In this document: one piece after another, positions 4,388-61,697 of the stretch
Numbering within the stretch: position 1 is the stretch's first letter
Layout: every line of letters starts with the position of its first letter
Assembly: GCA_018818405.1 (NCBI GenBank)
Contig: JAHIRY010000017.1
Coordinates: 7,563-71,562 of the forward strand
Length of the DNA stretch: 64,000 nucleotides
Direction of reading: 5' to 3'
Source: Patescibacteria group bacterium
Lineage (GTDB): Bacteria; Patescibacteriota; Patescibacteriia; UBA11705; JABHMO01
Notes under the pieces: generated by a model
Databases searched by the model: none
Seen by the model: only the letters and a program-made list of their open reading frames with translations
What the model was told of the DNA's origin: nothing
Program-made: the position numbers and the translations under genes

Positions 4388-6928
4388 ATGCAAAAGATCA
4401 AAAAAACATTGAGAATTATTTTTAGCCGAGAATTTTGGATAGATAATCGCCGCAATATTTTTGTCGGGATTGGTATTTCTCTTGTAGGATTATTTCTTAT
4501 CGCCGGAATTATTTTTGTAGTGTATTCAAGTTTGTTTACGGAGAAAAGCAATGAACAGACAGCCGTTGAAGCCATTTCGACCGGCGGTCCGAAACTTCTT
4601 TTTCTCGGTCTCGATGGCGCGAATTGGCCGTATGTCGAAGAATTGATCGCCAAAGGACAAATGCCGAATTTCAAAAAATTGCTTGATAACGGAACCATGG
4701 GGCGGGTTAAAACATTCAATCCGCCGGTTTCTCCTCCTCAATGGACATCGGTTGCCACAGGGAAACTGCCGGCGAAACACGGGATCACCAATTTCGTTTC
4801 CACTGCCAATGGCTACAATGAATACGCGCTGGTCGGTTCCAATGACAGGCATGTAAAAGCAATGTGGAATATATTTGAAGAAAAAGGATTTAAAGTCGGT
4901 TTGCTCGGCTGGAACGCTACTTATCCTGTTGAAATGAAAACCGGCTATACTGTTTCAGATATAGCGATCGTCAATCCGAGCAAAGGAATTGAACCGGAAT
5001 CATTGCGCAATGGAATTATTGCCAACACAGCAAAAACTCTCGGTTTTACCACTTTTGCGCAGGGCGTTTCGCTGGACATTCCGGATGCGAAAGATATTAA
5101 TGATGCGGCATATTTCGAGGCTTCGCACAAGAAATTCACTCTTTTCAATGATTTGTTCAACAGTAACAGTTTGTATGCGTTCAAAAAAGAAATGCCCGAT
5201 ATATTGTTTCAAGACGACGGCGTCCTAGACGGAACTCAGCATATTTTCCTGAAATTCAAACGCCCGCAAGAATTCAAAGAATATATTGATCCTGAATTGC
5301 AAGAAAAATACGGCGATTTCGTGGATGAAGTTTATCGCTCAAAAGATAAACTGCTGGGAGAATTCATGAAGCTGTCTACGCCGGATACTCATATCATTGT
5401 ATTTGCGGATTCCGGTTTTTTCGTTGATCCCGTTTCCGGCTGGCGGTTTGATCGCTTGGATATAATTTTGGAAATGATCGGATTGTTGAAAAGAGATGAT
5501 GCGGGAAATATTGATTATTCTCAAACAATCGCTTATGAATGCGGCAATAATGATTTTGATTGGGATCGGCAGTTGTGCATAAATTTGCAAGGCAGGCAAC
5601 CCGAAGGAATTGTTCCGCAGAAAGATTATGACAAAACGGTAAACCAAAATATCGGCAAACTTGAAGCATTGAAAACCACTGACGGCGAAGGATTATTCAA
5701 TTCAATAGGAGAGGCTTTCACTGTCAATGGCGATGTCAGGTATGAAATTAAAAGATCGGTTGTGGACAAAACAGTAATTATAAATAATAAAGAATATCCG
5801 ATAAAAAAGTTTTTAACTTTATCAATAGAATCGGGCGCGCATTATGCCGATCCCGAAGGTCCTCCGGGATTTTTCATCTGGTCCGGTCCGAATATTCGCA
5901 AAGGAAATGTGATCGAAAATATGAGATACATTGATTTTGCGCCGAACATTCTTCATTCTCTCGGTTATCCGATCGGCAGTGACATGGATGGGAAATACAT
6001 TGATCTTTTATATGAGAATCCGACCGAACCGGCGTATATTCCCACATATGAAAACAATCCGAATATCATCAGTCCGATAAATAATGAAATGTTGAGAAGC
6101 AGAGACAATGAAATAGTTCAGGACAATAAGGCGACAATTTTTACCGAGGCCAATCAAACGGACAAATACAAACAATTCTGTTTTCAGTTGGGCAATAAAA
6201 ATACCGCGGTGCAAGTGGATAAAATATTCAAAGTGAATGATCCTGTCGCTTCGATTGCCACATTGCCAAACAATAAATTCGAGCCCATCGATTTTATCAA
6301 AGTTAAGAGAATCTCCGAATTGGAGAAACTTTCAACGACCGTTTTTTTGCCGAAAAATTTTGACATGGGAATAGTAACAGATAAAAGTTTTAATATTTTG
6401 GGATCTCTGGAAATAAATAAACCGACGGAAATGGGAATCTGGACGAATACATCCTTTAATCTAAATTCTCCCGGCAAAGGCGTTTTTCGCCTGATCGCCA
6501 GAGGAATAAGCATGGATGGAGTTTTCCCCATATTGGAATTTTCTCAATCCAGCGGCGTAATTGCCCGGGTAATCATTAATTCAAATGATTATCAACCTTA
6601 TGATGTGATAATTCCAGATGCGGGAAATGTTAAAATCTCATATGTTAATGACGAGTTTAATGACAAGGAAGACAGAAATTTATATATACAAATGATAAAG
6701 TTTTCCGCCAATAATATGTTTGAACCGGCGGAAGACATGGAATTTTTCATGCAGAATGATAATTTGTGTTTTTACAATAGAAATAAAGGTGTTTTCAGAC
6801 TGGAACTTTCATTGGTTCCGCAAAATCAGCCTTCTGAAACGCAGGTTGATCAGGATATCCAAAAAGCGCTTGAATTTTTGCAGACAACCGGTGAAATTAA
6901 TGACACCTCGCCGGAGCCGGCTCCGTAA
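4388..6928 (+). CDS. Membrane-anchored type I phosphodiesterase/nucleotide pyrophosphatase (alkaline phosphatase superfamily) protein with a C-terminal beta-rich domain; paralog 1
   Basis: N-terminal TM helix. LLFLGLDGANWPYVEEL...MPNFKKLLDNGTMG...NPPVSPPQWTSVATGKLPAKHGITNF matches NPP/AlkP-family metal and nucleophile motifs. About 70% identical over its full length to ORF 9123..11675. Confidence 0.7.
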   Translation: MQKIKKTLRIIFSREFWIDNRRNIFVGIGISLVGLFLIAGIIFVVYSSLFTEKSNEQTAVEAISTGGPKLLFLGLDGANWPYVEELIAKGQMPNFKKLLDNGTMGRVKTFNPPVSPPQWTSVATGKLPAKHGITNFVSTANGYNEYALVGSNDRHVKAMWNIFEEKGFKVGLLGWNATYPVEMKTGYTVSDIAIVNPSKGIEPESLRNGIIANTAKTLGFTTFAQGVSLDIPDAKDINDAAYFEASHKKFTLFNDLFNSNSLYAFKKEMPDILFQDDGVLDGTQHIFLKFKRPQEFKEYIDPELQEKYGDFVDEVYRSKDKLLGEFMKLSTPDTHIIVFADSGFFVDPVSGWRFDRLDIILEMIGLLKRDDAGNIDYSQTIAYECGNNDFDWDRQLCINLQGRQPEGIVPQKDYDKTVNQNIGKLEALKTTDGEGLFNSIGEAFTVNGDVRYEIKRSVVDKTVIINNKEYPIKKFLTLSIESGAHYADPEGPPGFFIWSGPNIRKGNVIENMRYIDFAPNILHSLGYPIGSDMDGKYIDLLYENPTEPAYIPTYENNPNIISPINNEMLRSRDNEIVQDNKATIFTEANQTDKYKQFCFQLGNKNTAVQVDKIFKVNDPVASIATLPNNKFEPIDFIKVKRISELEKLSTTVFLPKNFDMGIVTDKSFNILGSLEINKPTEMGIWTNTSFNLNSPGKGVFRLIARGISMDGVFPILEFSQSSGVIARVIINSNDYQPYDVIIPDAGNVKISYVNDEFNDKEDRNLYIQMIKFSANNMFEPAEDMEFFMQNDNLCFYNRNKGVFRLELSLVPQNQPSETQVDQDIQKALEFLQTTGEINDTSPEPAP

Positions 6929-9122: not shown

Positions 9123-11675
9123 ATGAACAGCCACATCCAAAAAATTAAAGAAATCTTTGCAAACATCTTCAGCAAAGAATTTTTCATGACAAATCGTCGA
9201 AAGATTTTAATTGCGTCAATTGTTTTCGGCAGCGCAATTATCATTGGTGGAATCGTTATTATCTTTTACTCGAATTCAGTCAATAATAGCGATATTGGCA
9301 CTCCGTTTACTGATGAAACATCTTCCATTACAGGGCCAAAACTGCTTTTCCTCGGACTTGACGGCGCCAATTGGCCGTATGTTGAAGAGTTGATTGCCGA
9401 TGGACAAATGCCGAATTTCAAAAAACTGCTTGATAACGGAACAATGGGAATGATTAAAACATTCAATCCGCCGGTTTCTCCTCCGCAATGGACATCGGTT
9501 GCCACGGGAAAACTTCCGGCAAAACACGGGATCACCAATTTTGTTTCCTCTGCCAATGGATTTAGCGAATATGCTCTGGTAGGTTCAAATGACAGACATG
9601 TAAAAGCTTTGTGGAATATTTTTGAGGAAAAAGGATATAAAGTCGGTTTATTCGGCTGGACCGCAACATATCCGGTTGAATTGAAAACCGGCTACACTGT
9701 CACAGATATTGCCGTTATAAATCCGGTAAAAGGCATTGAACCTGATTCCTTGCGAAATGGAATTATCGCCAATACGGCCAAAACTCTCGGCTTTGCAACT
9801 TTTGCTCAAGGCGTTTCGCTTGACATTCCCGATGCGCAAGATATCAATGATGCGAAATATTTTGAAGCTGCGCACAAAAAATTCACTCTTTTTAATGATT
9901 TGTTCAATGGCAATAGTTTGTATGCTTTCAATCATGAACAACCTGATATTTTATTTCAAGAAGATGATGTTCTGGACGGAACTCAACATATTTTTCTGAA
10001 ATTCAAACGGCCGGAAGAATTCGAAGAACCGATTGAACCCGCTCTGCAGGAAAAATATGGCGATTTTGTGGATGAAATATATCGGGCAAAGGACGAATTG
10101 CTGGGCAAATATATGAAACTTGCTTCGCCTGACACTCATATTATCGTATTTTCCGATTCAGGATTTTTCGTTGATCCTGTTTCCGGCTGGCGGTTTGATA
10201 AAATTGATTCAATTTTGGAATTGCTGGGATTCCTAAAAAGAGATTCGTCCGGCAACATTGATTATTCGCGGACGATTGCTTATGAATGCGGCAATAATAA
10301 TTTTGACTGGGAGCGGCGCTTGTGCATAAATTTGGAAGACCGGCAGGAAAGGGGAATTGTAGCTCAAAAAGATTTTGACAGAACGGTAAAACAAATTATC
10401 TCTGTGTTTAATTCATTGAAAACCACTGATGGTGAAAGCATATTCAAATCGGTCTCGGAAACTTTTTCCGCCAGCGGAGATGTAAAATATGACATCAAAA
10501 GATCGGTTGTGGACAAATCGATTATTCTAAACAACAAGGAATATCCGATCAAAAAGTTTTTAACTTTATCAATAGAATCGGGCGCTCATTATGCCAATCC
10601 GGAAGGTCCGCCGGGATTTTTCATCTGGTCCGGTCCGAATATACGCAAAGGAAATGTGATCGAAAATATGAGATACATTGATTTTGCGCCGAACATTCTT
10701 TATTCACTCGGTTATCCGATCGGCAAAGATATGGACGGAGAATATTTGCAATCTATGTATGTTGAGCCGAAAATGCCGGAATACATTGAAACTTATGAAA
10801 GCAATCCGAACAAACTGAGTTCAAGCAACAATGAAATGTTAAGCGGCAGAGATAATGAAATAATTTCAGAAAACAAAGCGACGATTTTCGATGATATCAG
10901 GGAAACTGATAAATACAAACAGTTTTGTTTTAATCTGGGGAATAAGAATGTCGCTGTTCAAGTCGATAATATATACAAGGTAAATGATCCAAAGGCGGCT
11001 ATCACTACCGCGGTGAACAATGATTTCGAATCCGTTGATTTTATAAAAATAAAAAAGTTGACTGATCTCGAACAAATTTCCACAACAGTAATTTCGCCGG
11101 ACGAATTTAACACCGAAATGTCAAAGGAAAACAGCTTTAATGTTTTGGGCTCGCTGGAAACTAATACTCCGGCGGAAATGGGAATTTGGACGAACATGTC
11201 TTTCACCGTTCAATCGCCCGGCAAAGGCGTTTTCCGATTGATAGCAAAAGGAACGAGCGTGGATGGCGTGTTTCCGACATTGGAATTTTCCGAGGGCGGA
11301 AAGGTTTTTTCTCGGCTTGACATCAATTCAACGGATTATCATCCGTTTGATGTGAAAATTCCAATGGAAGGAGTAATCAATATTGCCTTTGTAAATGACA
11401 AGTATAACGATAATGAAGACAGAAATATCCGCATTCAGATGATTAAATTTTCGCAAACCGGAATGTTTGAACCGGAGCAAGACATGGATTTTTTCATGCA
11501 AAACGATGAATTGTGTTTTTACAATAGACGGAAAGGCACTTACAGACTTGAAATGTCAGTGATTCCGCAAAATATTCCTTCAACCGGCGCTGAAGACAAA
11601 GATATTCAGAAAGCGCTTGAATTTTTGCAAACCACCGGAGAAATAAAAGACACTTCCACGGAATCTGCTCCGTAA
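9123..11675 (+). CDS. Membrane-anchored type I phosphodiesterase/nucleotide pyrophosphatase (alkaline phosphatase superfamily) protein; paralog 2
   Basis: Same architecture and motifs as 4388..6928 (GPKLLFLGLDGANWPYVEELIADGQMPNFKKLLDNGTMG...). Tandem paralog. Confidence 0.7.
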   Translation: MNSHIQKIKEIFANIFSKEFFMTNRRKILIASIVFGSAIIIGGIVIIFYSNSVNNSDIGTPFTDETSSITGPKLLFLGLDGANWPYVEELIADGQMPNFKKLLDNGTMGMIKTFNPPVSPPQWTSVATGKLPAKHGITNFVSSANGFSEYALVGSNDRHVKALWNIFEEKGYKVGLFGWTATYPVELKTGYTVTDIAVINPVKGIEPDSLRNGIIANTAKTLGFATFAQGVSLDIPDAQDINDAKYFEAAHKKFTLFNDLFNGNSLYAFNHEQPDILFQEDDVLDGTQHIFLKFKRPEEFEEPIEPALQEKYGDFVDEIYRAKDELLGKYMKLASPDTHIIVFSDSGFFVDPVSGWRFDKIDSILELLGFLKRDSSGNIDYSRTIAYECGNNNFDWERRLCINLEDRQERGIVAQKDFDRTVKQIISVFNSLKTTDGESIFKSVSETFSASGDVKYDIKRSVVDKSIILNNKEYPIKKFLTLSIESGAHYANPEGPPGFFIWSGPNIRKGNVIENMRYIDFAPNILYSLGYPIGKDMDGEYLQSMYVEPKMPEYIETYESNPNKLSSSNNEMLSGRDNEIISENKATIFDDIRETDKYKQFCFNLGNKNVAVQVDNIYKVNDPKAAITTAVNNDFESVDFIKIKKLTDLEQISTTVISPDEFNTEMSKENSFNVLGSLETNTPAEMGIWTNMSFTVQSPGKGVFRLIAKGTSVDGVFPTLEFSEGGKVFSRLDINSTDYHPFDVKIPMEGVINIAFVNDKYNDNEDRNIRIQMIKFSQTGMFEPEQDMDFFMQNDELCFYNRRKGTYRLEMSVIPQNIPSTGAEDKDIQKALEFLQTTGEIKDTSTESAP

Positions 11676-21035: not shown

Positions 21036-22250
21036 ATGCCTGACATTTTCGGTTATGAAAATGAAAAATTGAACATCATCATGCTGAACATGTCAACTTT
21101 TTATGATTGGGAGCATGGAATTTCCAATCGCAATTTGAATATTCTCCGTTCGCTCGAAAAGAACGAACAAATAAACAAAATAATCGCGGTTGATTTCCTG
21201 CCGATGAATTTCCGCAAAGCGGTAAAACATTATTATCAAAATATTTTAAAACAAATACGAACATCGGAAATTGTTTTCGGAGATTTGACGAGCGCGTGTT
21301 ATCAAAAGACGGCCAAAGTTTTCGCTTACACAACGGTTGATTCGATTTTTTCCATGAATATTGTTGTGAAGGAATTGAAAAAAATAATCAAGCGAATGAA
21401 TTTGCAAAATGTAATCATCTGGTCGTACAATCCCATGTTCATTGATTTTATCGGCCGATTGGACGAAAAATTGTTTGTATTCGACACTGTGGACAATTGG
21501 TCTGAACATCCGGGCTACACAAAATTGCTGGCAAAGGAAAAACTTCTGGCCAATTATCGAAAAATCGCGCAGGAAGCTGATGTTATTTTCACGGTTTCCG
21601 AAGAATTGCTGGCGTTTTATGAAAAGATGAACCGCACGCACGATGTTTCCTGGATTCCGAACGGAGTGGATTTGGAACATTTCACAAATATTGAAAACTT
21701 GGAAAAAGAAAATGAATTAACGAAAATCGGAAAACCCATAATCGGTTATCTGGGAACGATTCAGGACAGAATCGACTTTGATCTCATTGCCGAGATCGCG
21801 AGAGAACATCAGGACAAAATAATCGCGCTTTGCGGTCCGGTCTGGGCGACTGTGCAAAAGGAAGTTGATGAAAAATTGAAAAAATTCGACAATATAATTT
21901 TCACCGGAAGAGTGGCTCTGGAAAATGCGCCGAGCTATATCACTCAATTCAGCGTTGCGATAATTCCGCACAAGATCGACGCATTCATAAAATCAACCAA
22001 TCCAATGAAAATGTACGAATATCTCGCCTGCGGCAAGCCGATAGTTTCGACCGAAGGAGCGGGGATTGATATGTTTTCCGATTTTATTTATATCGCTAAA
22101 AATAATTCTCAATTCATTCAATATATCGAGCAAGCGATTTCCGATGATTCCTTCGGCAAACAATCGCTGAGAAAAGAAATTCTAAAAGAACATACTTGGG
22201 AAAAAAGAACGGAGCGAATGATGTTAGAAATAAATGAAAAATTAAAATAA
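21036..22250 (+). CDS. Glycosyltransferase family 1 (GT4-type)
   Basis: C-terminal ...NPMKMYEYLACGKPIVSTEGAGID... typical of the GT1 family. Confidence 0.75.
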   Translation: MPDIFGYENEKLNIIMLNMSTFYDWEHGISNRNLNILRSLEKNEQINKIIAVDFLPMNFRKAVKHYYQNILKQIRTSEIVFGDLTSACYQKTAKVFAYTTVDSIFSMNIVVKELKKIIKRMNLQNVIIWSYNPMFIDFIGRLDEKLFVFDTVDNWSEHPGYTKLLAKEKLLANYRKIAQEADVIFTVSEELLAFYEKMNRTHDVSWIPNGVDLEHFTNIENLEKENELTKIGKPIIGYLGTIQDRIDFDLIAEIAREHQDKIIALCGPVWATVQKEVDEKLKKFDNIIFTGRVALENAPSYITQFSVAIIPHKIDAFIKSTNPMKMYEYLACGKPIVSTEGAGIDMFSDFIYIAKNNSQFIQYIEQAISDDSFGKQSLRKEILKEHTWEKRTERMMLEINEKLK

Positions 22251-22283
22251 AAAAAGTTCGGCTGCGTTGCAGTCGAACCGAAT
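22251..22283. terminator. Bidirectional hairpin terminator (repeat copy 1: AAAAAGTTCGGCTGCGTTGCAGTCGAAC)
   Basis: 10-bp stem with one mismatch and GTT loop, flanked by an A-run and (on the minus strand) a T-run. Nearly the same hairpin recurs at 22774..22803. Confidence 0.55.
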
Positions 22284-22300: not shown

Positions 22301-22681
22301 CTATTTTTTCAAGGAAAAAACTTTTCTATCCCAGACAAAGAATTCATTATCACCGGTTGTCATATTGAAGACGAATTCGCCGAGAGGTGTTTTTCTCGCC
22401 AGATTTATTCGTCTGAAAATTGGAACTCGCATTCTTTCAGCTGATTCCGACAGAAAAAACTGAGCGCTGTTGACATCATTGAATATGACACTCGTCATGG
22501 AATATATTTCCGTTGCATCGATCATAGTTGTCTGTTCGCCGGTGGCAAGACTTGCCACATGGACTACATTGGGAAATTCCGTATCCTCCTGAATTCTCAT
22601 GAAGGCTTCTGCTGACTTCCCCGGTCGGACATCCCTTCCGCTGACAAAACAATGCGAATTCTCGAGCATTTTGAGCTGCAT
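22301..22681 (-). CDS. Hypothetical protein, tandem paralog A
   Basis: 126 aa. Shares the block GRDVRPGKSAEAF / TKDVNPGVSASVY with 22816..23193. No known domain recognised. Confidence 0.45.
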   Translation of the reverse strand: MQLKMLENSHCFVSGRDVRPGKSAEAFMRIQEDTEFPNVVHVASLATGEQTTMIDATEIYSMTSVIFNDVNSAQFFLSESAERMRVPIFRRINLARKTPLGEFVFNMTTGDNEFFVWDRKVFSLKK

Positions 22682-22773
22682 TACGACCTCCTTGCGCGAG
22701 TGACGAGCGTTATAAGATAATAAAATATGATTGAAATTTTGTCAATCCTTGAATTTTTTACTCTTGTGAAAAT

Positions 22774-22803
22774 AAAAAAAGCCCGACTGCGTTGCAATCG
22801 GAC
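22774..22803 (-). terminator. Hairpin terminator (repeat copy 2: CCGACTGCGTTGCAATCGG) after paralog B
   Basis: Same GCGTTGCA-loop hairpin as at 22256..22278. T-run on the minus strand. Confidence 0.5.
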
Positions 22804-22815
22804 AATCAATTGGAT

Positions 22816-23193
22816 CTATCGGGAAAAAGCCAGAACTTCCGTCTCTGACCGGAAAAGAGCGTAAACTCCCTCGGAAAAATTCCATGCGTTTCTCACGCCA
22901 GCGTTTGTTTTCTCTTTCGACAACTTTCTGAAAAGCGAAGCCGCTTCATGATTTGCAACGACCGACAGCGGTACGAACATTTGCGAATGCTTGACTTCTT
23001 TGAAATTCATTCTTTTCAATGGGAAAACTATAACGCCGCCGAGCATAGCTTCCATTATTCCGTTTGACTGATTTTCAGAGAGAAACCATTTTCCTGAAAT
23101 CTCAAAGAACCGATACACGCTCGCGCTCACTCCCGGATTAACATCTTTCGTTTTGATAAAATAATCTTTAACGGAAAGCTTACGGATTTCCAT
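22816..23193 (-). CDS. Hypothetical protein, tandem paralog B
   Basis: 125 aa. Paralog of 22301..22681. Confidence 0.45.
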   Translation of the reverse strand: MEIRKLSVKDYFIKTKDVNPGVSASVYRFFEISGKWFLSENQSNGIMEAMLGGVIVFPLKRMNFKEVKHSQMFVPLSVVANHEAASLFRKLSKEKTNAGVRNAWNFSEGVYALFRSETEVLAFSR

Positions 23194-23334
23194 TTTTCAC
23201 CTCCCTGAACGCATTGAATCTTAATATAAATTAGCACAACAGATTTGATCTGTCAACCGTAATAAATCGGGTATAATAAAGCAAAAGGCACAAGTATAAT
23301 AGAGTTATAGGAAAAAAACATAACTCAAAAACTT

Positions 23335-24153
23335 ATGCCTAATGCAAAAGCATTATCTCAGTTTCCCAACGAAAAACAAGTTTTGAGGGAACTGCAAAGA
23401 ATTATTTTTGGAAAACATGTTAAATGTCCGCATTGCCAGCGGCAAATATATGTGATTGAGTTAAAAAAAAATCGGCTGTGGCGTTGCCGAAAATGCCGTA
23501 AAAGATTTAGTATTACCAGCGTAAATTGGTTGAAGGGCATGAAGATTTCCGGAACAAAATTATGGATGTTGGTATGGTGCTGGCAACAAAAATTGGGAGT
23601 GCTTCAAGTCTCGGGTTTGTGCTTAACATCCATTCCGACGATTCGAAGATACTATGAGCTATTTCGTGATAATTTACAAATAAATTGTGATGATATTATT
23701 CTCGAAGGCATAGTGCAAATGGATGAAATGTTTGTTAAAGGAGCTTTCATTTTAGGAGCAAAAGACATTATACGAAAACGAATTAAAATGAATGTGGTGT
23801 TTAAGAAATCACCTGAAAAACATGATGCTATGAATATGATATTTCAACATGTAAAACCCGGTTCAACTTTATTTACCGACGGCAGTAAGATTTATCGGAA
23901 AAGTGAAGATTGGTGGCCGATTACGCATAAATCCGAATGTCACAGTAAATTTGAGTTTAGTCAGACTTCGGAAGTGGAAGGAATGTGGGGCGTTCTCAGG
24001 ACTTTTATCAGAAGAATGTATCATCATGTCACACTGAAAAAATTGGTCAAAATTATCGCTGAATTTGAAGCCCGTTTTTCATTCAAAGAATTATTCAAAT
24101 ATGCGCTTAATTTCCTTAAAAACTCATTATCCTCTGTTCCTCTTGCTTTCTAA
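23335..24153 (+). mobile_element. IS1595-family (ISXO2-like) transposase gene
   Basis: N-terminal transposase zinc ribbon (CPHCQRQIYVIELKKNRLWRCRKCRKRFS), then ISXO2-like DDE region (VQMDEMFV...LFTDGSKIYRK...). 272 aa. Terminal inverted repeats not identified by eye. Confidence 0.7.
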
Positions 24154-24187
24154 TACCCAATAAATCAAGAACAATTTTAAAAAAAAT

Positions 24188-33583: not shown

Positions 33584-36205
33584 TTAATTCTGTTGAAATA
33601 TTACTTTGCCATTATAATCCACCAAAACTTTGTCTTTTATTTTTCCCTGAACAATGCGCATTGCCAATTCATCGAGAATTTTATTTTGAATTACACGCTT
33701 TAGCGGGCGAGCGCCGAACTGCGGATCATATCCTTCGTTTGCCAGCATTTCTCTCGTCTCTTTTGAAAATTCAATTTCAATATCTTTTTTCGCCGCACGC
33801 TCCGCCACTTTTTCCAATTGCAAATCAACGATTTTTCTGATTTCGTTTTTGCCGAGAGCTTCGAAAATTATCACTTCATCGATTCGATTCAAAAATTCGG
33901 GACGGAAATTGTCCTTTAATATTTTCAAAATTTTATCATCATTTTTTTCTTTGATGGAAATTTCATCCGAACCAAAACCAATGTCGCTCTTGTTCAGCGA
34001 ATTGAGAATCACATCGCTTCCTATATTTGATGTCATTATAATTATTGTGTTTTTGAAATTAACGGTTCTGCCTTTCGCGTCAGTCAATCGTCCGTCATCG
34101 AGCAGTTGCAATAAAACATTGAAAACTTCCGGATGCGCTTTTTCAATTTCATCAAACAAAACAACAGAATACGGACGCCGGCGAATCTGCTCGGTCAGCT
34201 GTCCTCCATCGTCAAATCCGACATAACCCGGAGGAGAGCCGATCAGTTTTGAAACCGAATGTTTTTCCATGAATTCCGACATGTCAACCCGGACAATCGA
34301 TTCTTCATTGTTGAACATGAATTCAGCCAGCGCTTTTGCCAATTCGGTTTTTCCCACTCCGGTAGGACCGAGAAAAATGAAAGATCCGATCGGACGATTT
34401 TCTTCGGAAAGTCCGGCGCGCGATCGCCGCAAAGCATTGGCAACCGCTGTGATTGATTTTTTTTGTCCGATGACGCGAAGCGCCAATTCTTTTTCAATAA
34501 ACGCCAATTTTTCCATTTCGCTTTGCAGCATTTTCGATACCGGAATTCCGGTCCAGCGCGCCACCACGTTTGCAATGTCCTCGGCAGTCACTTCTTCCTT
34601 TAAAATCTGCCGTCCGCCCGGACCGCTCTGAACTGTTTTTAATTTTTCCTGAAACTCTTTTATTATTTTTTCATTTTCCGGAATTCGGCCGAAACGGATT
34701 TCCGCCACGCGGTCATATTCTGATTTTCTTTCCAGAATATCAGCTTCTTGTTTCAATCGGTCAATTTCTTTTTTCGCGTCATGAATTTTCCCGATGATTT
34801 CTTTTTCTTTGCGCCAATGTATTTCCAAACGGTTTGACTGCTCCTTCAATTCTTCCAATTCTTTTTCAATTTCACGAATCTTGTGTTCGGTTGTTTCCGT
34901 TTTTTCTCTGGCAATGGCTTGCTTTTCAATTTCCAGCTTCATGATTTTTCTTTTGAATTGATCAAGCTCGGTCGGCAAACTGTTCAATTCGATTCGAAGA
35001 GCGGAAGTAGCTTCGTCAACAAGATCAATCGCTTTGTCCGGCAAAAATCTCTCGGTAATATATCGTTCGGAAAGATTGGCCGCTTCCACAATCGCTTCAT
35101 CGGTAATGCGCACGCCGTGGTGAACTTCATATTTTTCCTTGATCCCGCGCAAAATCGCGATTGTGTCATCTAGATTCGGTTCGGGAACCAATACCGGCTG
35201 AAATCGTCTTTCCAGTGCCGCGTCTTTTTCAATATATTTTTGATATTCTTTCAATGTTGTCGCGCCAATGCAATGCAAATCTCCGCGCGCCAACGCAGGC
35301 TTCAGCATATTCGAAGCATCGAGCGAACCTTCAATCGCGCCGGCTCCGACAATCGTATGCAATTCATCGATGAAAATAATATATTTTTCTTTGCTTTTTT
35401 GAATTTCCTGCAAAACAGCTCGCATTCTTTCTTCAAATTCTCCGCGAAATTTCGAACCGGCAAGAAGGGAACTGATGTCCAAACTTAAAACTTCTTTGTT
35501 TTTCAAATTGTCAGGCACATCGCCGGCGACAATTCTCTGAGCCAATCCCTCGGCAATCGCGGTTTTTCCCACTCCCGGCTCGCCGATCAGCACCGGATTA
35601 TTTTTTGTTCTGCGCGAGAGAACTTGCAAAACTCTTCTGATCTCATCATCTCTTCCGATAATCGGATCGAATTTTTCTTCCCGCGCTTTTTGAGTCAAAT
35701 TGATAGTGTATTTTTCCAAAACCTGATATTTATTTTCCGGATCAGGCGAATCAACTTTTTGCGTTCCGCGAACTTCAGCCAAAATTTTCAGAACAGAATC
35801 ATAATCAACCTGAAAATGTTCCAAAATAATATTCGCTTCAGAATCGACTTTCAACAAAGATAAAAACAAATGTTCAGTGCTGATAAATTCATCGCCCAAT
35901 TTTTTTGATTCTTTTTCCGCAGTGATCAAAACATAATTCATCTGCGCGGTAATCAATGCTTGCGCGCTGAGATTTCGGTTTTCGCTTTTTGGCAGAGAAC
36001 GCAAAACTTTTTCCACTTCGGAAATAATCGTTTCAATCGGGACTTCCAATTTCTTTAAAATCGAAAGCACCACGCTCTGATCCTGATGCATGAGCGCATG
36101 AAGCAAATGCAGGGGATCGAGCTCCAAATTTTTGTATTCAAAAGCCAAAACCTGAGCTTCTTGCAAAGCTTGCTGGCTATTCGTGGTAAATTTATTGATA
36201 TCCAT
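33584..36205 (-). CDS. clpB: ATP-dependent chaperone ClpB (two AAA+ modules with coiled-coil M domain)
   Basis: N-domain [21 protein letters not shown]. Walker [16 protein letters not shown] and [15 protein letters not shown]. Long coiled coil between the NBDs. 873 aa. Confidence 0.9.
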
Positions 36206-36329
36206 AGATTTATCGGATTAATACTTAGCACTCCCAGTACTTGATTGCTAAATATATTATATGAAAATCAGCATAATTGTCAACTTTCTTTTTTAGCGGT
36301 AATTTGGTAGAATTATATTGATGCGAATT

Positions 36330-36490
36330 CACGAATTATTAGTTTGATGTCACGAATTTACAAATATTACGAATGTTACGAATTATTAGTTGGGTTGATA
36401 CCACCGCAGCGTGCGGGATCCCGTCTCACAGCGGTGATTTAGTATTTAGAATTTTAATTGTGCTACATGTTATATGTTACATGTTACATG
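36330..36490. repeat. Intergenic repeat family, copy A (ACGAATTATTAGTT x2, GGTTGATACCACCGCAGCGTGCGGG stem-loop, TGTGCTACATGTTATATGTTACATG iterons)
   Basis: Shares 25-nt and ~30-nt blocks with 57819..57950 and 58541..58750. Imperfect inverted repeat CACCGCagcgtgCGGGatcCCGtctcacaGCGGTG. Confidence 0.7.
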
Positions 36491-38596: not shown

Positions 38597-39862
38597 CTAG
38601 GCGTCGTCACCGTCCTCGGAGTACCGACCCCGCCGCTGCCACCCGCCCTGGCGCTGGGGCGAGCCGCGGCCGAGCCGCTCGGATCCGCGGATACGAGCCC
38701 GGAGCCCCTCGGCCTTCTGGCGCGCCGCCTCTCGCCGCTTGCGATCCTCTTCTCGCTGGACGAACCAGCGCGCGAAGAGAATCGCCTGGACGGCGTTGAA
38801 GGGGGTGAGAACGGAATCACAGTGGATGTCCTGAAGGAGCTTGAAATCCTCCTTCATCACCACCGCGTACGTCGCCTCGTCCCCACTCAGACGCTTCACG
38901 ACGATCGCCTGCCTGGAGAACGGGATGACCCGTCTCGTCCCCTCCGCCGCACCCGCGAGGTAATTGGGGTCTAGCACCTGCTTTACCCACAACCACCAGT
39001 CGCCGGGCGACTCGATGTTTGCGGACTTGACCCGGGTCTCGTAGACCCGGAGGTAGGGGGGAAAGACGCTCTCGAGCGCCGACTTGCTCGGCGCATCGAT
39101 CTCGCCGGCGGCCGGCTTGAGATCGAGCGGGTCGAGCTTCGCGAGTGCCTCGAGGCTCACCCAAGACTGCTCCCAGTCGACCGTCTTGAGGACGGCCAGC
39201 CGTTCGAAGCGCGCCTCCTCCTCCTTGCGGAGGCGGAGGATGCACTCGGTGAGAGCCTCGGGCCTGACCGTGGTGCGCCGCTCCTCGGAGAGGAGCCGGG
39301 CGACCATGGTCGCGTTCGCAGAGCTGAAGAAGCGATCCTTCCCCTCGAACCACACGACGCGAACGTCGTTCGGCTCGAGGTTCATCGGCTCGTCCTCCTC
39401 GGTCGACAGGTAGTCGACGAGGTGGCCGTCCTCGGGCAGGCTGACGGACACATCGAGGCCGAAGCGCTCGATGTAGTGGGGCAGGCTGGAGATGAGGATC
39501 GGGGAGTTGTCCCCGGCGGGGGCGGGCTGGACGGTCTCGGTCTCGGCGGGGTGGGAAACGATGTCGGCGGTCGGGGACTCGGTGGTGGTCGGGATCTCGG
39601 TGGCGGGCTTGGGGGACAGCATGGTAGCCTCCTCGGACTTGTTGGTGTTCTGCTTCTGCTTGCGGATCTCTTCAGCGGCCTTCCGCCTTTCGGCGGCGGC
39701 CGCTTCATTCTTCACCTGCTCGGCACGGCGTGCGGTCTTTCGAACCGCCTGCCGCTCCAGAGCTTCGGCCTTCTTCTGCGCCTTGGCGGCGACAGAAGGG
39801 TCTGGCTTCTTGTCCTTCTTCTTGTTGTCCTTGTTGTTGCCTTCTTCCTTCTTGCGTCCCAT
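38597..39862 (-). CDS. Hypothetical protein encoded in a ~65-70% GC island (charged Lys/Glu/Arg-rich tails, unknown core)
   Basis: 421-aa ORF (by eye far GC-richer than its flanks, roughly two-thirds G+C against ~35% background). N-terminus MGRKKEEGNNKDNKKKDKKPDP, C-terminus RGSPQRQGGWQRRGRYSEDGDDA. Numerous spurious overlapping ORFs on both strands, as expected for stop-poor GC-rich DNA. Confidence 0.45.
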   Translation of the reverse strand: MGRKKEEGNNKDNKKKDKKPDPSVAAKAQKKAEALERQAVRKTARRAEQVKNEAAAAERRKAAEEIRKQKQNTNKSEEATMLSPKPATEIPTTTESPTADIVSHPAETETVQPAPAGDNSPILISSLPHYIERFGLDVSVSLPEDGHLVDYLSTEEDEPMNLEPNDVRVVWFEGKDRFFSSANATMVARLLSEERRTTVRPEALTECILRLRKEEEARFERLAVLKTVDWEQSWVSLEALAKLDPLDLKPAAGEIDAPSKSALESVFPPYLRVYETRVKSANIESPGDWWLWVKQVLDPNYLAGAAEGTRRVIPFSRQAIVVKRLSGDEATYAVVMKEDFKLLQDIHCDSVLTPFNAVQAILFARWFVQREEDRKRREAARQKAEGLRARIRGSERLGRGSPQRQGGWQRRGRYSEDGDDA

Positions 39863-57805: not shown

Positions 57806-57818
57806 ATAGTCATTAACT

Positions 57819-57950
57819 GGTTGCTACCACCGCAGCGTGCGGGGCAGGCGAATTATAATTACGCAATTAAAAATTTATATTTTGTTACATGCTACATGTT
57901 ATGTGCTACATGATTAGTGCTCCTTGCTAAGTGTTCCTTGCTCCCTGCGG
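57819..57950. repeat. Intergenic repeat family, copy B
   Basis: GGTTGCTACCACCGCAGCGTGCGGGG, AATTATAATTACGCAATTAA, TGTTACATGCTACATGTTATGTGCTACATG, TGCTCCTTGCTAAGTGTTCCTTGCTCCCTG. Shared with copies at 36330 and 58541. Confidence 0.7.
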
Positions 57951-57975
57951 ATTACTACACACGATAATTCATTAC

Positions 57976-58002
57976 TTGACAAAACATGATAATTGCTATA
58001 AT
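57976..58002 (+). promoter_or_regulatory. Sigma70-type promoter with extended -10 (TTGACA-15-TGcTATAAT) driving the Cys-rich gene
   Basis: acTTGACAaaacatgataatTGcTATAATatt. Strong SD AAGGAGAG 6 nt before ATG at 58039. Confidence 0.55.
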
Positions 58003-58038
58003 ATTTTCTTTCGGTTCCCCCTAACAAAGGAGAGCATC

Positions 58039-58470
58039 ATGTGCAAGAATTGCGGACATGAAACAAAACAAGGAGAATGGAAATTCAGACATTTCAAGGA
58101 CTCAGAGCATAACTGCAACGATCTCTGGAATCAAGCAATGTTTTTTGTCAGGGACAAAAAATTGGCATTTGATGAATTCAAAATTGCAGTAAATTCAATT
58201 CCCCGTTCGACGACATATTGCGGCGGTCATACCTCCAACTATGTGGAAAACTGTGTAACGGTTGTTTATCTGGATCGAGATTCGGATCAGCTAGTTGCCA
58301 AGTCTGACTGTGAATGCGGCAAACAAATCGACATGGAACCTGCAGATTCGCTTGTTGCGGAAAATCTCGCTCCGACTCGAGAATGTGCCGATAATCTCGA
58401 TAGTGAACCAGTGCCGCTGCATCGGCTTCTCGACAAGTTGGATCGCACAACCCCAAAGAATAGCGTATAA
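58039..58470 (+). CDS. Hypothetical Cys-rich protein (143 aa) flanked by direct copies of the intergenic repeat
   Basis: MCKNCGHETKQGEWKFRHFKDSEHNCNDLW...CGGHTSNYVENC...CECG...: about 10 Cys, N-terminal CxxC. Track ORF 57931..58470 begins inside the repeat; the ATG with SD is preferred. Confidence 0.5.
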   Translation: MCKNCGHETKQGEWKFRHFKDSEHNCNDLWNQAMFFVRDKKLAFDEFKIAVNSIPRSTTYCGGHTSNYVENCVTVVYLDRDSDQLVAKSDCECGKQIDMEPADSLVAENLAPTRECADNLDSEPVPLHRLLDKLDRTTPKNSV

Positions 58471-58540
58471 AAACGCGACTATCTTCAATTATCCGCTTTG
58501 CCCCATGTGGCGAGCGGTCTTTTTTCATTACGAATCTATA

Positions 58541-58750
58541 GGTTGATACCACCGCAGCGTGCGGGGTTCCGCTCACAGCGGGACGAATTATAATTACGCA
58601 ATTAAGGATTTTAATTTGTGATTTGGAATTTCGAATTTATAATTTGTTTCGGATTTCAGATTTCGAACTTAGGATTTTAATTGTGCTACATGTTATATGT
58701 TATGTGCTACATGTTATGTGCTCCTTGCCAAGTGCTCCTTGCTCCCTGTC
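58541..58750. repeat. Intergenic repeat family, copy C (longest; includes an internal ATTTCGAA sub-repeat)
   Basis: GGTTGATACCACCGCAGCGTGCGGGG...AATTATAATTACGCAATTAA...TTTTAATTGTGCTACATGTTATATGTTATGTGCTACATGTTATGTGCTCCTTGCCAAGTGCTCCTTGCTCCCTG. Confidence 0.7.
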
Positions 58751-61697
58751 ACTTCCTAAACTCGCAAATCTCCTTATAAGCGCAATACGGACACAAAAAC
58801 GGATTCGGATTCGGATCGAATTTCTGCGCTCTTATATTTTCAATGTTTTCCAAAAATTTTTCCTTCAACTTTATCTTATCTTTTTCCTTTCCAATAAATG
58901 AAACTTTTTTGTCCCCTTCCAAATAATAATAAGACAACTTTTCCAAATTCAATTTCAACGCTTCCTCAGCCGCGATCTGATAAAACAAAAGCTGGCGGCG
59001 ATCTTCGGTTGAAAGTTTATCATCTTTTGTTTTTCCGGTCTTGTAATCAATAATTTCCGCATTGTCCCCCATCTCATCAATCCGATCAATGCGGCCGGAA
59101 AACAAATAATCTCCGATATGCAAGTGAAAAATTTGCTCCAAATTTTTTACCACCGGTTTTTCCGCCATAAAATTTCCGTAAAAATTTTTTAGCAAAAGTT
59201 TTCCTTTTTCATAATATTCTTCTTTTTGCTTTTTGTCTTCATACCAATCATCGTTCCAATTTTCATCATAAATTTCAAAAAGCCTTTTCAACGACAATTC
59301 CGTTTGATTCGAATTCTCAGGCGCGCCGAACAAATCCGGCTGAATCGAATTGCTATTTCGCAAAACTTCCTCGAGAAATTTCTGCAAAGTCGAATGAATG
59401 GCAGTACCAAAAGAAAAATGCGGACTGCCGAAAGTCGGTATTTTCAAAATATTGGCGAATTTATATTGCAATGGACAATTCTCATAAGTCTGCATCTGGG
59501 AAAAACTGAATTTCTTGGGCAATTCATATTTTATTTTTTTCAGCACAACTTCCGGCGCAACCATAATTTCTCCGTCATCCTTTTTCACCGCTTTTTCCGG
59601 CGCAGAATATCCGAGTTCATGGAGAAATCGAGACAACTTTTTTGCGCGAGCTCCGCCGTAATCTTCGGCTGAAGTGAAATACAATCCCTTTTTCGCGCGC
59701 GTCATGGCAACATAGAAAAGCCGGCGCTCTTCCTCCAAATGAAAGTCGCCTTCCGGCAATTTTTCTTTCAATAACGCAACCGGAATTTCAATCGGTTCCC
59801 TGCGTTCGTCCGTGGGAAATTTTCTGTCCACCAGATTCACAATAAAAACATAATCAAATTCCAAACCCTTTGCGCTGTGAATCGTCAAAATTCTCACCAT
59901 GTCCGGTCCGACGCTCGCGTCAAACGCCAGCTGGCCGGTCTCGCCCGCTTCCTGTTCCATTTTTATCAAATCAAGCAAATCGGAAACACGCGCACCGGGC
60001 GTGTTCGATTCCATTGTTTGCGCTTTTTTGAAAAATTGTTGTAAATAATTGAAATCATCATGCGACGCGCGATCGTCTTTTTGCTTCAAATATTCCAAAT
60101 AACCGCTGCCGTACAAAAAACTCATCAAAATTTCCGTCGGCTTTTTTGTTTTCAAGAGTTGGGAATCCTTGCTTATCTGCGCCAGCAATTTGTTTACTCG
60201 CTGGATATTTTCCGGATTTATTCCCTGCACCGCGGAAATCATTTGCATCGCATCATACAAAACCATTGATTTTTTTTTCGCGTAATGAACCAATTTCACA
60301 ATATCTTCCGCATCAATCTTCAAATGAGTCAAACTCAAAATCCGAAAAACCGCCGCGCTTTCATGATAATTGTCCAGCAATTTCAAATAATTTATCAGAT
60401 CAATCACAATCGGTTTGCAATACAATCCGCGCATGGCCGCGAATTGATACGGAATTCCCGCTTTTTCCAAACAGTTGATAAATATATTCGCGCTGTCATT
60501 CGCTCTGACCAGAATGGCAAAATCCGACCAGCTCGTTTTTTTTTCTTCGGCCAAATTCAAAATTTTCTTTACCACTGTTTCCGCTTCATCTTCCGCTGTC
60601 CGGCAATGCAAATGAGAAACTTCCGCGCCGCTTGAAATTGATTTTAATTTTTTATCGATGCCGAGCTTCACTTCCAGCCGATTCGGATTGTTCCGCCTGA
60701 TAAAGTTGTAAGAAGTGTCGAGAACTTCCTGATGCGATCGATAATTTTCCACGAGAACCACTTTGTCAGCCGCCGGGAAATCTTCCATGAACTTCATTAT
60801 ATTTGTAATGGAAGCGCCTCGGAATTTATAAATAGACTGATCATCATCGCCGACAACGGTAATATTGTTTTTCGGAGCTGCCAACATTTTTATCAATTCA
60901 TATTGAACAAAATTAGTATCTTGAAATTCATCAACCAAAATTTGTTTGAACTGCTGGCGATATTTTTCCAAAATAAGCGGACGTTCTCGAAATAATTTTA
61001 TGGAATAATTTATCAAATCAGCAAAATCCAAACTTTCATTTTCCAGCAACAATCGTTGATAAATATGAAACGCGTTTGCAATTTCTTCCACTCGCATTAT
61101 TTCACTTTTCATCAACTCTTTTCTCTCACCAACGGAAAATCCGGACAAATCAAGTTTTTTCACGAATTCGGTCGCATCATTGTTAAGTTTAATTTCCTCG
61201 GCGTATTGCAGATAATCTTCCGGATAAATTCCTTCATCTTTGCAGCGGGAAAAATGGCGTAAAAGAGCGTGAATGAATTTTGCCGGATTGCTGGCCGGCC
61301 GGTAATAATCGAGATTGAATTTTTCCAAATTTTTTCTGACCAACAGCCAAGTTGCGGTTCCATCCAGCAATTTATAATTATTCGGCAGTCCGATATCCAG
61401 CGCGTGCCGTTTCAGCAATTTGTCGCAAAAAGAATGAAATGTGGAAATCCACAAATCAACATATCCGTACGGCAACATTTGCAGGACGCGATCTTCCATT
61501 TCTTCCGACGCTTTCTCCGTGAAAGTCAGAGCCAGCAATTGATCGACATTCAAATTTTTTTCCAAAATCAACCAAGCGATCCTCGCGGTAATCACTCGAG
61601 TTTTTCCGGTTCCCGCGCCAGCGACAATGAGCTGAGGCCCGTCGCCGTGAGTTATCGCCTGAAGCTGTTCTTTGTTCGATTCGCTGAATAAGCTCAT
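58749..61697 (-). CDS. UvrD/PcrA-type helicase fused to a C-terminal PD-(D/E)xK (RecB/Cas4-like) nuclease domain
   Basis: Walker A AGAGTGKTRVITARIA and UvrD motifs (DEFQDTN, VGDDDQSIY). C-terminal ~250 aa carries nuclease-like motifs with four Cys (CPLQYKF...CPYCAYKEIC). Track ORF extends to 61790. Confidence 0.75.
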   Translation of the reverse strand: MSLFSESNKEQLQAITHGDGPQLIVAGAGTGKTRVITARIAWLILEKNLNVDQLLALTFTEKASEEMEDRVLQMLPYGYVDLWISTFHSFCDKLLKRHALDIGLPNNYKLLDGTATWLLVRKNLEKFNLDYYRPASNPAKFIHALLRHFSRCKDEGIYPEDYLQYAEEIKLNNDATEFVKKLDLSGFSVGERKELMKSEIMRVEEIANAFHIYQRLLLENESLDFADLINYSIKLFRERPLILEKYRQQFKQILVDEFQDTNFVQYELIKMLAAPKNNITVVGDDDQSIYKFRGASITNIMKFMEDFPAADKVVLVENYRSHQEVLDTSYNFIRRNNPNRLEVKLGIDKKLKSISSGAEVSHLHCRTAEDEAETVVKKILNLAEEKKTSWSDFAILVRANDSANIFINCLEKAGIPYQFAAMRGLYCKPIVIDLINYLKLLDNYHESAAVFRILSLTHLKIDAEDIVKLVHYAKKKSMVLYDAMQMISAVQGINPENIQRVNKLLAQISKDSQLLKTKKPTEILMSFLYGSGYLEYLKQKDDRASHDDFNYLQQFFKKAQTMESNTPGARVSDLLDLIKMEQEAGETGQLAFDASVGPDMVRILTIHSAKGLEFDYVFIVNLVDRKFPTDERREPIEIPVALLKEKLPEGDFHLEEERRLFYVAMTRAKKGLYFTSAEDYGGARAKKLSRFLHELGYSAPEKAVKKDDGEIMVAPEVVLKKIKYELPKKFSFSQMQTYENCPLQYKFANILKIPTFGSPHFSFGTAIHSTLQKFLEEVLRNSNSIQPDLFGAPENSNQTELSLKRLFEIYDENWNDDWYEDKKQKEEYYEKGKLLLKNFYGNFMAEKPVVKNLEQIFHLHIGDYLFSGRIDRIDEMGDNAEIIDYKTGKTKDDKLSTEDRRQLLFYQIAAEEALKLNLEKLSYYYLEGDKKVSFIGKEKDKIKLKEKFLENIENIRAQKFDPNPNPFLCPYCAYKEICEFRK

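Follow-up and report, generated by a model that had tools for sequence, protein, structure and literature searches.

BOX elements of Streptococcus pneumoniae and S. suis are modular, lineage-restricted repeats that have been regarded as parasitic, with an expected structural influence on the genes co-transcribed with them (PMC3049150). Among long simple-sequence repeats, heptamers show the strongest over-representation in many bacteria, for which polymerase slippage is a proposed cause (PMC4679880, PMC4692102). Intergenic heptamers of unknown function have been described in cyanobacteria, with three heptanucleotides in Calothrix, in Xanthomonas, and in Beggiatoaceae (PMC4692102, PMC4679880). 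Two further kinds of small element, the Rickettsia palindromic elements and the small dispersed repeats of cyanobacteria, are mentioned in PMC3049150 and PMC3116915. Here we analyze a repeat family found in a 64,000-nucleotide (nt) stretch of DNA from a Patescibacteria group bacterium (contig JAHIRY010000017.1); the whole stretch is referred to below as the window. The family is probably a lineage-specific mosaic extragenic repeat, in which a GC palindrome competent for insertion is embedded in heptanucleotide arrays generated by slippage. Patescibacteria are regarded as extremely streamlined and poor in repetitive and mobile DNA. In the genome studied here, about one intergenic gap per 15 kb carries a mosaic repeat of 130–600 nt, and relatives fill even the spacers within operons with heptamers. 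Full-text literature searches turned up no paper describing such repeats in Patescibacteria.

The window holds three copies of the repeat, A, B, and C, all of them intergenic. The 18-mer ACCACCGCAGCGTGCGGG occurs at positions 36400, 57826, and 58548, each time on the + strand, where chance predicts 0 occurrences. Allowing up to 3 mismatches added no site in the window, and 0 of 100 dinucleotide-preserving shuffles gave a match. De novo repeat finding in the window recovered the shared blocks independently, as families D4, D9, and D14. The original prediction, made from the letters of the stretch, had placed block-sharing segments at 36330–36490, 57819–57950, and 58541–58750. Direct reading locates them there, and the boundaries can be refined to approximately 36323–36490 for A, 57819–57947 for B, and 58530–58748 for C. 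"Forward" denotes the + strand of the window. The organization of the three copies is as follows, with array calls by Tandem Repeats Finder (TRF) in parentheses.

36323–36392, + strand: copy A, 5′ module made up of (G/A)CGAAT boxes (TTACGAA/TTTACAA type) with a period of about 9 (TRF 36347–36383, consensus ATGTTACGA, 4.2 units).
36393–36437, + strand: copy A, core, consisting of GGTTGATACC, hairpin 1 CCGCAGCGTGCGG at 36404–36416, hairpin 2 CCGTCTCACAGCGG at 36421–36434, and then TGA.
36438–36460, + strand: copy A, linker and AT-rich heptamers of the form ATTTAGN (TTTAGTATTTAGAATTTTAATTG); the ATTTAGA array at 9622–9659 of contig L010, which is introduced below, is homologous.
36461–36490, + strand: copy A, heptamer array TGCTACA TGTTATA TGTTACA TGTTACA TG (TRF 36464–36490, period 7, 3.9 units).
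57819–57848, + strand: copy B, truncated core, consisting of GGTTGCTACC and hairpin 1 at 57830–57842; hairpin 2 is deleted.
57849–57882, + strand: copy B, block GAATTATAATTACGCAATTAA and an AT-rich linker; the block is also present in copy C and at 3846–3870 of contig L075 (see below).
57883–57947, + strand: copy B, heptamer arrays TGTTACA TGCTACA TGTTATG TGCTACA TGATTAG, then TGCTCCT TGCTAAG TGTTCCT TGCTCCC TG (TRF 57886–57942, and regular-expression search).
58530–58583, + strand: copy C, one ACGAAT box and a complete core, consisting of GGTTGATACC, hairpin 1 at 58552–58564, and hairpin 2 at 58569–58581.
58584–58606, + strand: copy C, block ACGAATTATAATTACGCAATTAA, from reading the sequence.
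58607–58683, + strand: copy C, AT-rich heptamer arrays of GGATTTT, GATTTGG, AATTTCG, TTCGGAT, and similar units (TRF 58613–58677, period 7).
58684–58748, + strand: copy C, heptamer arrays TGCTACA TGTTATA TGTTATG TGCTACA TGTTATG, then TGCTCCT TGCCAAG TGCTCCT TGCTCCC TG.

The individual blocks described earlier were read where they had been claimed. The hairpin CCGCA-GCG-TGCGG is present in A, B, and C, and the outer CACCGC...GCGGTG in copy A; GAATTATAATTACGCAATTAA and GTGCTCCTTGCYAAGTGYTCCTTGCTCCCTG were read in copies B and C; and TTTTAATTGTGCTACATGTTATATGTTA is identical between A and C, which have a 28 nt identical stretch in common. The peptide RILIVLHVICY is encoded in A and C by AGR ATT TTA ATT GTG CTA CAT GTT ATA TGT TAY. 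The reiterated units that had been called iterons exist, but they are really short tandem arrays with a period of 7, or about 9 in the case of the ACGAAT boxes (TRF). Block order, which had been said to differ between A and the other two copies, is essentially the same: copy A aligns end to end with another copy, at L010 9545–9685 (nhmmer E = 4e-19), and its 5′ module aligns with the equivalent module at L010 9538–9587. The sole difference in order concerns the ACGAAT-type boxes, which in A lie on the 5′ side of the core and in B and C mainly on its 3′ side. An extra block following the core, ACGAATTATAATTACGCAATTAA, is a feature of B and C.

The order of modules in a full element is [TTACGAA(T/G)]n with a period of about 8–9, GGTTGMTACC, a 35 nt core, [ATTTAGR/GGATTTN]n, optional GC palindromes, [TGYTAYR]n, and [TGCTCCY]n, the last array terminating in GCTCCCTG. 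The core is a GC-rich imperfect palindrome, ACCACCGCAGCGTGCGGGGTYCCGCTCACAGCGGTGA. It can form two hairpins, CCGCA-GCG-TGCGG (hairpin 1) and CCGC-TCACA-GCGG (hairpin 2), or alternatively a single long imperfect hairpin, CACCGC...GCGGTG. The two-hairpin fold of the copy C core has a predicted energy of −21.3 kcal/mol (z −2.6). The heptamer arrays have 2 to approximately 10 units each, and TRF finds them short, degenerate, and nearly all of period 7.

The family extends beyond the window. A scan of JGI metagenomes found the core on two contigs, L010 and L011; the pattern (22 bases, TTGNTA prefix required) is specific and is too strict for copies such as L010-2 and L011b, and diverged copies would escape all of the exact scans of sequence collections reported here. 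L010 is 99.99% identical to ENA ERZ27247128 contig k141_323230 (L075). A 143-residue orphan protein encoded between copies B and C is NCBI MBU1131956.1 (locus tag KKC32_01730), located on contig k141_731505 of that same ENA assembly, and the UvrB of L010 is MBU1132267.1, about 310 accession numbers from the window proteins. Because of the closeness of these accessions and the common ENA assembly, L010 is assigned to the genome of the window. An exact-protein look-up of the window's DciA returned no record, probably because a different start codon was called. Since its source is the same JGI metagenome and the repeat family is present on it too, L011 is treated as part of the same genome. The elements found on these contigs are as follows.

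L075 12021–12222: element downstream of uvrB (nhmmer/TRF).
L075 20496–20720: element in the spacer between a radical-SAM gene and mazG (nhmmer/TRF).
L075 3558–4146: compound element of 590 nt with two cores, filling the PSP1–pheS spacer.
L011 6852–7141: element with a tandem double core.

In total, seven loci with nine cores, all nine intergenic, are found in about 107 kb (window, L075, and L011). Whole elements align across loci in the same module order, with E values of 1e-12 to 1e-23 in single-sequence nhmmer searches (e.g., copy C against L010 9566–9731, E = 4e-18). Copies B and C share a 31 nt block found nowhere else, so that they may in part have arisen by local duplication; as the sole origin of the entire family, local duplication is excluded. 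The view of a structured, modular, multi-copy intergenic repeat rather than a simple local duplication is therefore upheld by the copies on two other contigs of the same genome. One open reading frame (ORF) of 59 codons crosses the L011 element, but coding potential was dismissed, since the frame is not conserved in the other copies.

In other genomes, only chance matches were obtained from the wider motif search that had been proposed. An exact 19-mer had nine matches among 185,579 GTDB species-representative genomes, all in unrelated GC-rich genomes and about the number expected by chance. IMG/VR yielded 53 matches, against about 56 expected by our own estimate, all in GC-rich coding sequence and none with hairpin 2. 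A blastn search with copy C found no match in phage and plasmid collections. Thus far the family is known from one genome only.

Several observations concern the core apart from its arrays. Beside the tRNA-Tyr gene of L075 lie three partial copies of it (L075 8250–8965, overlapping L010 12798–12994). In partial copy 1, a 35 nt core variant consisting of hairpin 1, a variant of hairpin 2, and TGG sits exactly between G34 and U35 of the anticodon; no duplication accompanies this insertion in the anticodon loop. Partial copy 2 has a decayed core at that position and, in its T arm, another GC palindrome, and partial copy 3 has hairpin 1 alone, in the D-loop. These core-bearing copies are presumably dead. 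The duplicated tRNA-Tyr unit also includes the start of a small downstream gene, which, judged by eye, may encode a GIY-YIG-type nuclease. At L075 3660–3700, in the pheS–PSP1 element, the core keeps its flanks, ACCACCGC...GCGGGACGAAT, and the inner part matches the model better when reversed, as expected of a flip between the arms of the palindrome. In L011, the core is present as a tandem direct doublet. From the tRNA insertions, the flipped core, and the doublet, it follows that the core is a separate unit, capable of insertion, inversion, and duplication without the arrays. "Mobile remnant" was the closest of the readings first offered; nevertheless, the mobile unit appears to be the 35 nt palindrome.

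An alignment of seven cores has 16 consecutive invariant positions and an invariant left half, and the nine core hairpin pairs are formed in 98% of the alignment cells. The covariation check suggested earlier gave a score of 0 for the seven copies because the stems never vary; it is uninformative rather than negative and speaks neither for nor against an RNA structure. A likeness of GGTTCCCGCAGCGTGCGGGATAAAC to a solitary CRISPR-like repeat of type I-E was considered and rejected: there is no array, there are no cas genes, and the hairpin is found in a tRNA pseudo-copy.

The genes flanking the window copies are as follows.

Copy A: clpB (− strand, 33584–36205) and a WecG–NUDIX fusion gene (+ strand, first in-frame ATG at 36488).
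Copy B: dciA (− strand, start 57805, 13 nt from copy B) and the 143-residue orphan gene (+ strand, 58039–58470).
Copy C: the terminator of the orphan gene (58497–58526, directly before copy C) and an AddA-like helicase–nuclease gene (− strand, stop 58749–58751).
58039–58470, + strand: orphan gene for a 143-residue Cys-rich protein, between B and C, with a promoter-like site at 57976–58004 and a terminator at 58497–58526; it does not belong to the repeat but sets its context.

On the core side, the neighbor is the canonical terminator hairpin of a codirectional gene at three loci (copy C, uvrB, and L011) and the start codon of a divergent gene, 1–15 nt away, at three others (copy B/dciA, mazG, and pheS). 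At five of the seven loci, the gene on the TGCTCCY side runs directly into the element, and no terminator intervenes. The addA stop is 0 nt from copy C, and the PSP1 stop is 22 nt from its element. The uvrB gene, the radical-SAM gene, and a 753-residue ORF on L011 end inside arrays, at the TAA of a CATAACA unit. Copy A stops at its [TGYTAYR] array, whose final bases provide the first in-frame ATG (36488–36490) of the WecG–NUDIX gene. From the lack of terminators between these genes and the elements, we infer that the element would be transcribed mainly in the reverse (antisense) sense, as a 3′ untranslated region (UTR) or intercistronic spacer that reads CAGGGAGCA...CATAACA...core.

UvrB is about 15 residues longer than seven homologues because its ORF reads through [CAGGGAG]5; the overrun through the five CAGGGAG units is at L075 12021–12070. 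A near-perfect palindrome, GAGGCGCAAAATTTTGCGCCTA (L075 11819–11840), which is also a module of two element copies, is present within uvrB, where it lies in frame in a hypervariable linker and encodes EAQNFAPT. An in-frame insertion of the palindrome GAGGCGCAAAATTTTGCGCC into uvrB was considered and is unsupported, as the linker is no longer than in homologues.

Heptamer arrays are also found in related genomes. The closest AddA homologues are 65–68% identical and are labelled Falkowbacteria or Kuenenbacteria. The gene order addA-dciA-(proS-like)-mreBCD-PBP2-greA is kept in four related genomes (L013, L016, L071, and L072), all of which lack the window core. L013 and L016 share a GC hairpin of their own, AATTCGCCCGCCTTGCC..., flanked by ATTCGTA/ATTTGTA heptamers. 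The GC hairpins of related genera are different and the heptamer types are similar (TACGAAT, TGYTAYR/TGYTCCW, and ATTTAGR), with TACGAAT-type arrays also present in L016 and L071. In L013, whose AddA is 67% identical, period-7 arrays occupy almost every spacer, including those of the ATP-synthase operon. Long spacer hairpins of L013 have both arms made of heptamer arrays (AGTCAAA/TTTGACT, TGGAGCA/TGCTCCA), with z values of −3 to −7. In a strict 21 nt autocorrelation of five sequences, the amount of high-identity array sequence was by far the largest for period 7 in L010, L013, and L016, with the hits mostly in intergenic DNA, and period 7 and its multiples lead the TRF output. Given the arrays and separate GC hairpins of the relatives, the window family is one local version of a clade-wide habit, in which intergenic heptamer arrays are combined with lineage-specific GC palindromes. 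The relevant coordinates are as follows.

L013 1125–1220, 1630–1730, 7655–7740, 18465–18560, and 21650–21748: hairpins with heptamer arms.
Window 57806–58748, L013 13151–13569, L016 5308–5510, L071 7407–7436, and L072 9853–11419: the addA–dciA gap.

The contents of the addA–dciA gap vary. It is empty in L071, carries repeats over approximately 200 nt in L016, combines repeats with a small ORF on the opposite strand in L013, and has two unrelated ORFs in L072. The 143-residue orphan of the window has only a weak similarity to the 78-residue ORF of L013, found in the same place and orientation (pairwise E = 9e-4, 21% identity), and no homologue other than itself was found among 5.8 billion proteins. 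The gap is a hotspot for lineage-specific small opposite-strand ORFs.

The reading of the family as a mosaic extragenic repeat, which we consider probable, draws on its dispersal, the constant module order, the independence of the core, the absence of transposon and small-RNA hallmarks, and the dominance of period 7. The mechanism we propose is as follows. The AT-rich heptamer arrays would most plausibly be made and resized by replication slippage. The whole mosaic may be copied among gaps by recombination, gene conversion, template switching, or a hairpin-recognizing enzyme acting in trans. The elements would be tolerated because they are outside coding sequence. By analogy with REP/BIME and BOX repeats, their likely effect is a generic one exerted through hairpin structure, with the mRNA 3′ end being stabilized or attenuated. 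No specific function is demonstrable, and a dedicated regulatory function is not indicated.

Several points weigh against this reading. The orientation bias comes from only seven loci, and the counts cover about 10% of a roughly 1 Mb genome. The invariant left half of the core fits recognition by a protein, and hence a function, as well as it fits recent spread. No insertion/empty-site or array-length polymorphism was seen: the two assemblies are 99.99% identical over 13 kb, with no indels, though they may share reads and hence may not be independent. No enzyme responsible for spreading was identified. Finally, the same few heptamer types occur in genera with AddA proteins 65–68% identical, which neutral slippage by itself does not obviously predict.

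The alternative that survives best, although it is unlikely, is that the elements are functional RNA modules, either cis-acting UTR elements or a family of small RNAs. The arrays contain Shine-Dalgarno-like motifs (AAGGAG/AGGGAG) in one sense and anti-Shine-Dalgarno-like ones (CUCCUU/CUCCC) in the other. They could titrate ribosomes or an RNA-binding protein with a 7 nt register, or could pair in trans with complementary arrays of other loci. Copy C, in agreement with such a role, folds better as + strand RNA through G-U pairs (−59 kcal/mol, z −2.3) than as − strand RNA (−42 kcal/mol, z −0.7), and its 58607–58683 segment forms one long, G-U-rich hairpin as + strand RNA. Two of the intercistronic heptamer hairpins of L013 (z −3 to −7) are clearly stronger in the mRNA sense. 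In copy A, the array runs up to a start codon lacking a Shine-Dalgarno sequence, much as TAACTGA heptamers abut start codons in Beggiatoaceae (PMC4679880). Moreover, if A is the wecG leader and C the addA 3′ UTR, the two RNAs would be perfectly complementary over 28 nt. Yet for the full-length element that follows uvrB, neither strand folds better than shuffled sequence (z +1.3), and the invariant stems give no covariation. In Rfam searches, only the tRNA reached the gathering score, and nothing relevant appeared even at E up to 10. Promoter-like hexamers do occur in the AT-rich arrays, but they are not common to the copies, and no terminator follows the element. The small-RNA gene family first suggested is accordingly not borne out, and neither is a shared regulatory module, as the copies are in convergent, divergent, and intercistronic gaps beside unrelated housekeeping genes.

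A second and decidedly unlikely alternative operates at the DNA level, with the palindrome and the boxes (TTACGAA, TGTTACA), i.e., the iterons of the original prediction, being targets of a DNA-binding protein that acts as a dimer or oligomer, for instance a nucleoid-associated, transcription, replication, or segregation factor. The 16 invariant core positions in the seven aligned copies are more than hairpin formation needs, and in four related genomes gaps that are not orthologous carry arrays of the TACGAAT type. In addition, B and C adjoin dciA, where the cumulative GC skew reaches its minimum. The skew trend, however, follows gene orientation, and a 7 bp period does not hold sites on one face of the helix. 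Copies lie not only near promoters but also within operons and in convergent gaps; the core is also found inside dead tRNA copies; and no DnaA-box-like or parS-like consensus was recognized by eye. A replication origin near dciA, suggested by the skew minimum and the "iterons", was likewise dropped, in view of the third copy 21 kb away, the presence of the family on other contigs, and the dependence of the skew on gene orientation.

More speculative still, and improbable on present evidence, is the idea that the heptamer arrays are a readable code in a genome-wide post-transcriptional network, with the 35 nt palindrome as its mobile seed. The proposal builds on the presence of the same arrays, in both transcript senses, at many loci. 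One sense would present Shine-Dalgarno-like strings right after stop codons; the other would present anti-Shine-Dalgarno-like strings and UGUUACA repeats near start codons. These might conceivably act by RNA–RNA pairing, as in the wecG leader/addA 3′ UTR case, or by titration of ribosomes or of a protein reading a 7 nt register. If true, such a network would operate in ultra-small bacteria with very few classical regulators, and the palindrome would be spread by an undescribed hairpin-specific mechanism that leaves no target-site duplication.

[quoted passage not shown] The MITE and attachment-site suggestions of the original prediction fall with this alternative, and the check for target-site duplications that it had proposed found none consistent at any of the seven loci. 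The IS1595-family transposase gene (23335–24153), the sole mobile-element gene found in a window that otherwise encodes housekeeping genes, has imperfect inverted repeats of 27 nt (arms 23266–23292 and 24135–24161) and is about 12 kb from copy A; a link between it and the repeat family was rejected, as the IS1595 end repeats are unrelated to the element.

Taken as mosaic extragenic repeats, the elements have practical consequences: they make spurious ORFs, lengthen real ones, as in the case of UvrB, and are likely spots for assembly breaks and binning errors. If they do act on mRNA, they would be among the few regulatory devices identified in this phylum.

Other features of the window and contigs were noted, as follows.

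38597–39862, − strand: ORF of 421 residues with Lys/Glu/Arg-rich ends and no Pfam match; GC content is 60–73% (38600–39800) in a genome of about 39% GC. By coordinate arithmetic, ENA contig k141_731505 would end near window position 38115, beside this ORF, and the region may be an assembly join or a chimera beside a horizontally acquired gene.
4388–6928 and 9123–11675: paralogous type I phosphodiesterase-family genes (846 and 850 residues, DNA identity 70–87%, 4747 nt apart), separated by a gene for a LigD-phosphoesterase domain and a 534-residue ORF without a Pfam match.
22244–22278 and 22769–22803: two copies, 86% identical, of a terminator-like hairpin AAAATAAAAAAAG-YYCGRCTGCGTTGCARTCGRAC, in the gaps around small − strand genes at 22301–22681 and 22816–23193.
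L011 1–218: tandem array of TTTCGCAATTCAACG with a 15 nt period (14.6 units) and an 89 nt super-period, running to the contig end downstream of a 958-residue ORF; this is a different repeat type in the same genome.

Compared with known systems, the element resembles the REP/BIME repeats of enterobacteria and the REPINs of Pseudomonas (PMC3116915) in its core, which is a short (20–40 nt), GC-rich, imperfect palindrome restricted to extragenic DNA. As with REP/BIME, it often occupies the gap separating convergent genes or the stretch from a stop codon to a terminator, forms mosaics with other short motifs, occurs in both internal orientations, and would be expected to act through hairpins in co-transcribed RNA. 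It differs from REPINs in having no inverted doublet: the L011 doublet is direct, and the pair at L075 3660/3812 shares the orientation of its flanks, the inner part alone being flipped. A conserved GTAG/CTAC like that of REPs was not seen, CTAC preceding the core in only three of seven aligned copies, and no RAYT (IS200/IS605-type Y1) gene was seen among the scanned ORFs of the window, which is part of the genome. Furthermore, the palindrome is embedded in heptamer arrays, which REP/BIME repeats lack.

With BOX, the element shares a composite build with fixed end modules and a variable count of internal tandem modules, restriction to a single lineage, nesting with other repeats, and overlap with or extension of ORFs. 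The internal modules of BOX, however, are about 45 nt long rather than 7, and its boxA and boxC ends are complementary, resembling terminal inverted repeats, which are absent here. The likeness to BOX and BIME is one of architecture; kinship in sequence is not expected, as the families are lineage-specific and the host phylum differs.

The Rickettsia palindromic elements and cyanobacterial small dispersed repeats resemble the core in that a tiny GC-rich hairpin is placed precisely inside copies of an RNA gene, here the tRNA-Tyr pseudo-copies. They differ in that the tRNA copies here are incomplete and, presumably, dead. As in Rickettsia-type elements, the variable linker of UvrB contains a related palindrome in frame, but it adds no length relative to homologues.

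Lastly, the STRR repeats of Calothrix/Nostoc, GGGAATC of Xanthomonas, and TAACTGA of Beggiatoaceae are, like the arrays described here, intergenic 7 nt tandem arrays with few unit types, present at many loci and in related genera, some of them immediately upstream of start codons without a canonical ribosome-binding site. The units differ: those found here are TACGAAT, TGYTAYR, TGCTCCY, and ATTTAGR, and the published TAACTGA, GGGAATC, and GGGGAYT are absent. The arrays here are also short (2–10 units), degenerate, and placed in a fixed order around a GC palindrome, so that the dispersed unit is a composite, and the host has a streamlined genome of about 1 Mb. The family is thus an independent case, in a very small genome, of the heptanucleotide-repeat phenomenon, whose origin and function were never settled in cyanobacteria, Xanthomonas, or Beggiatoaceae.

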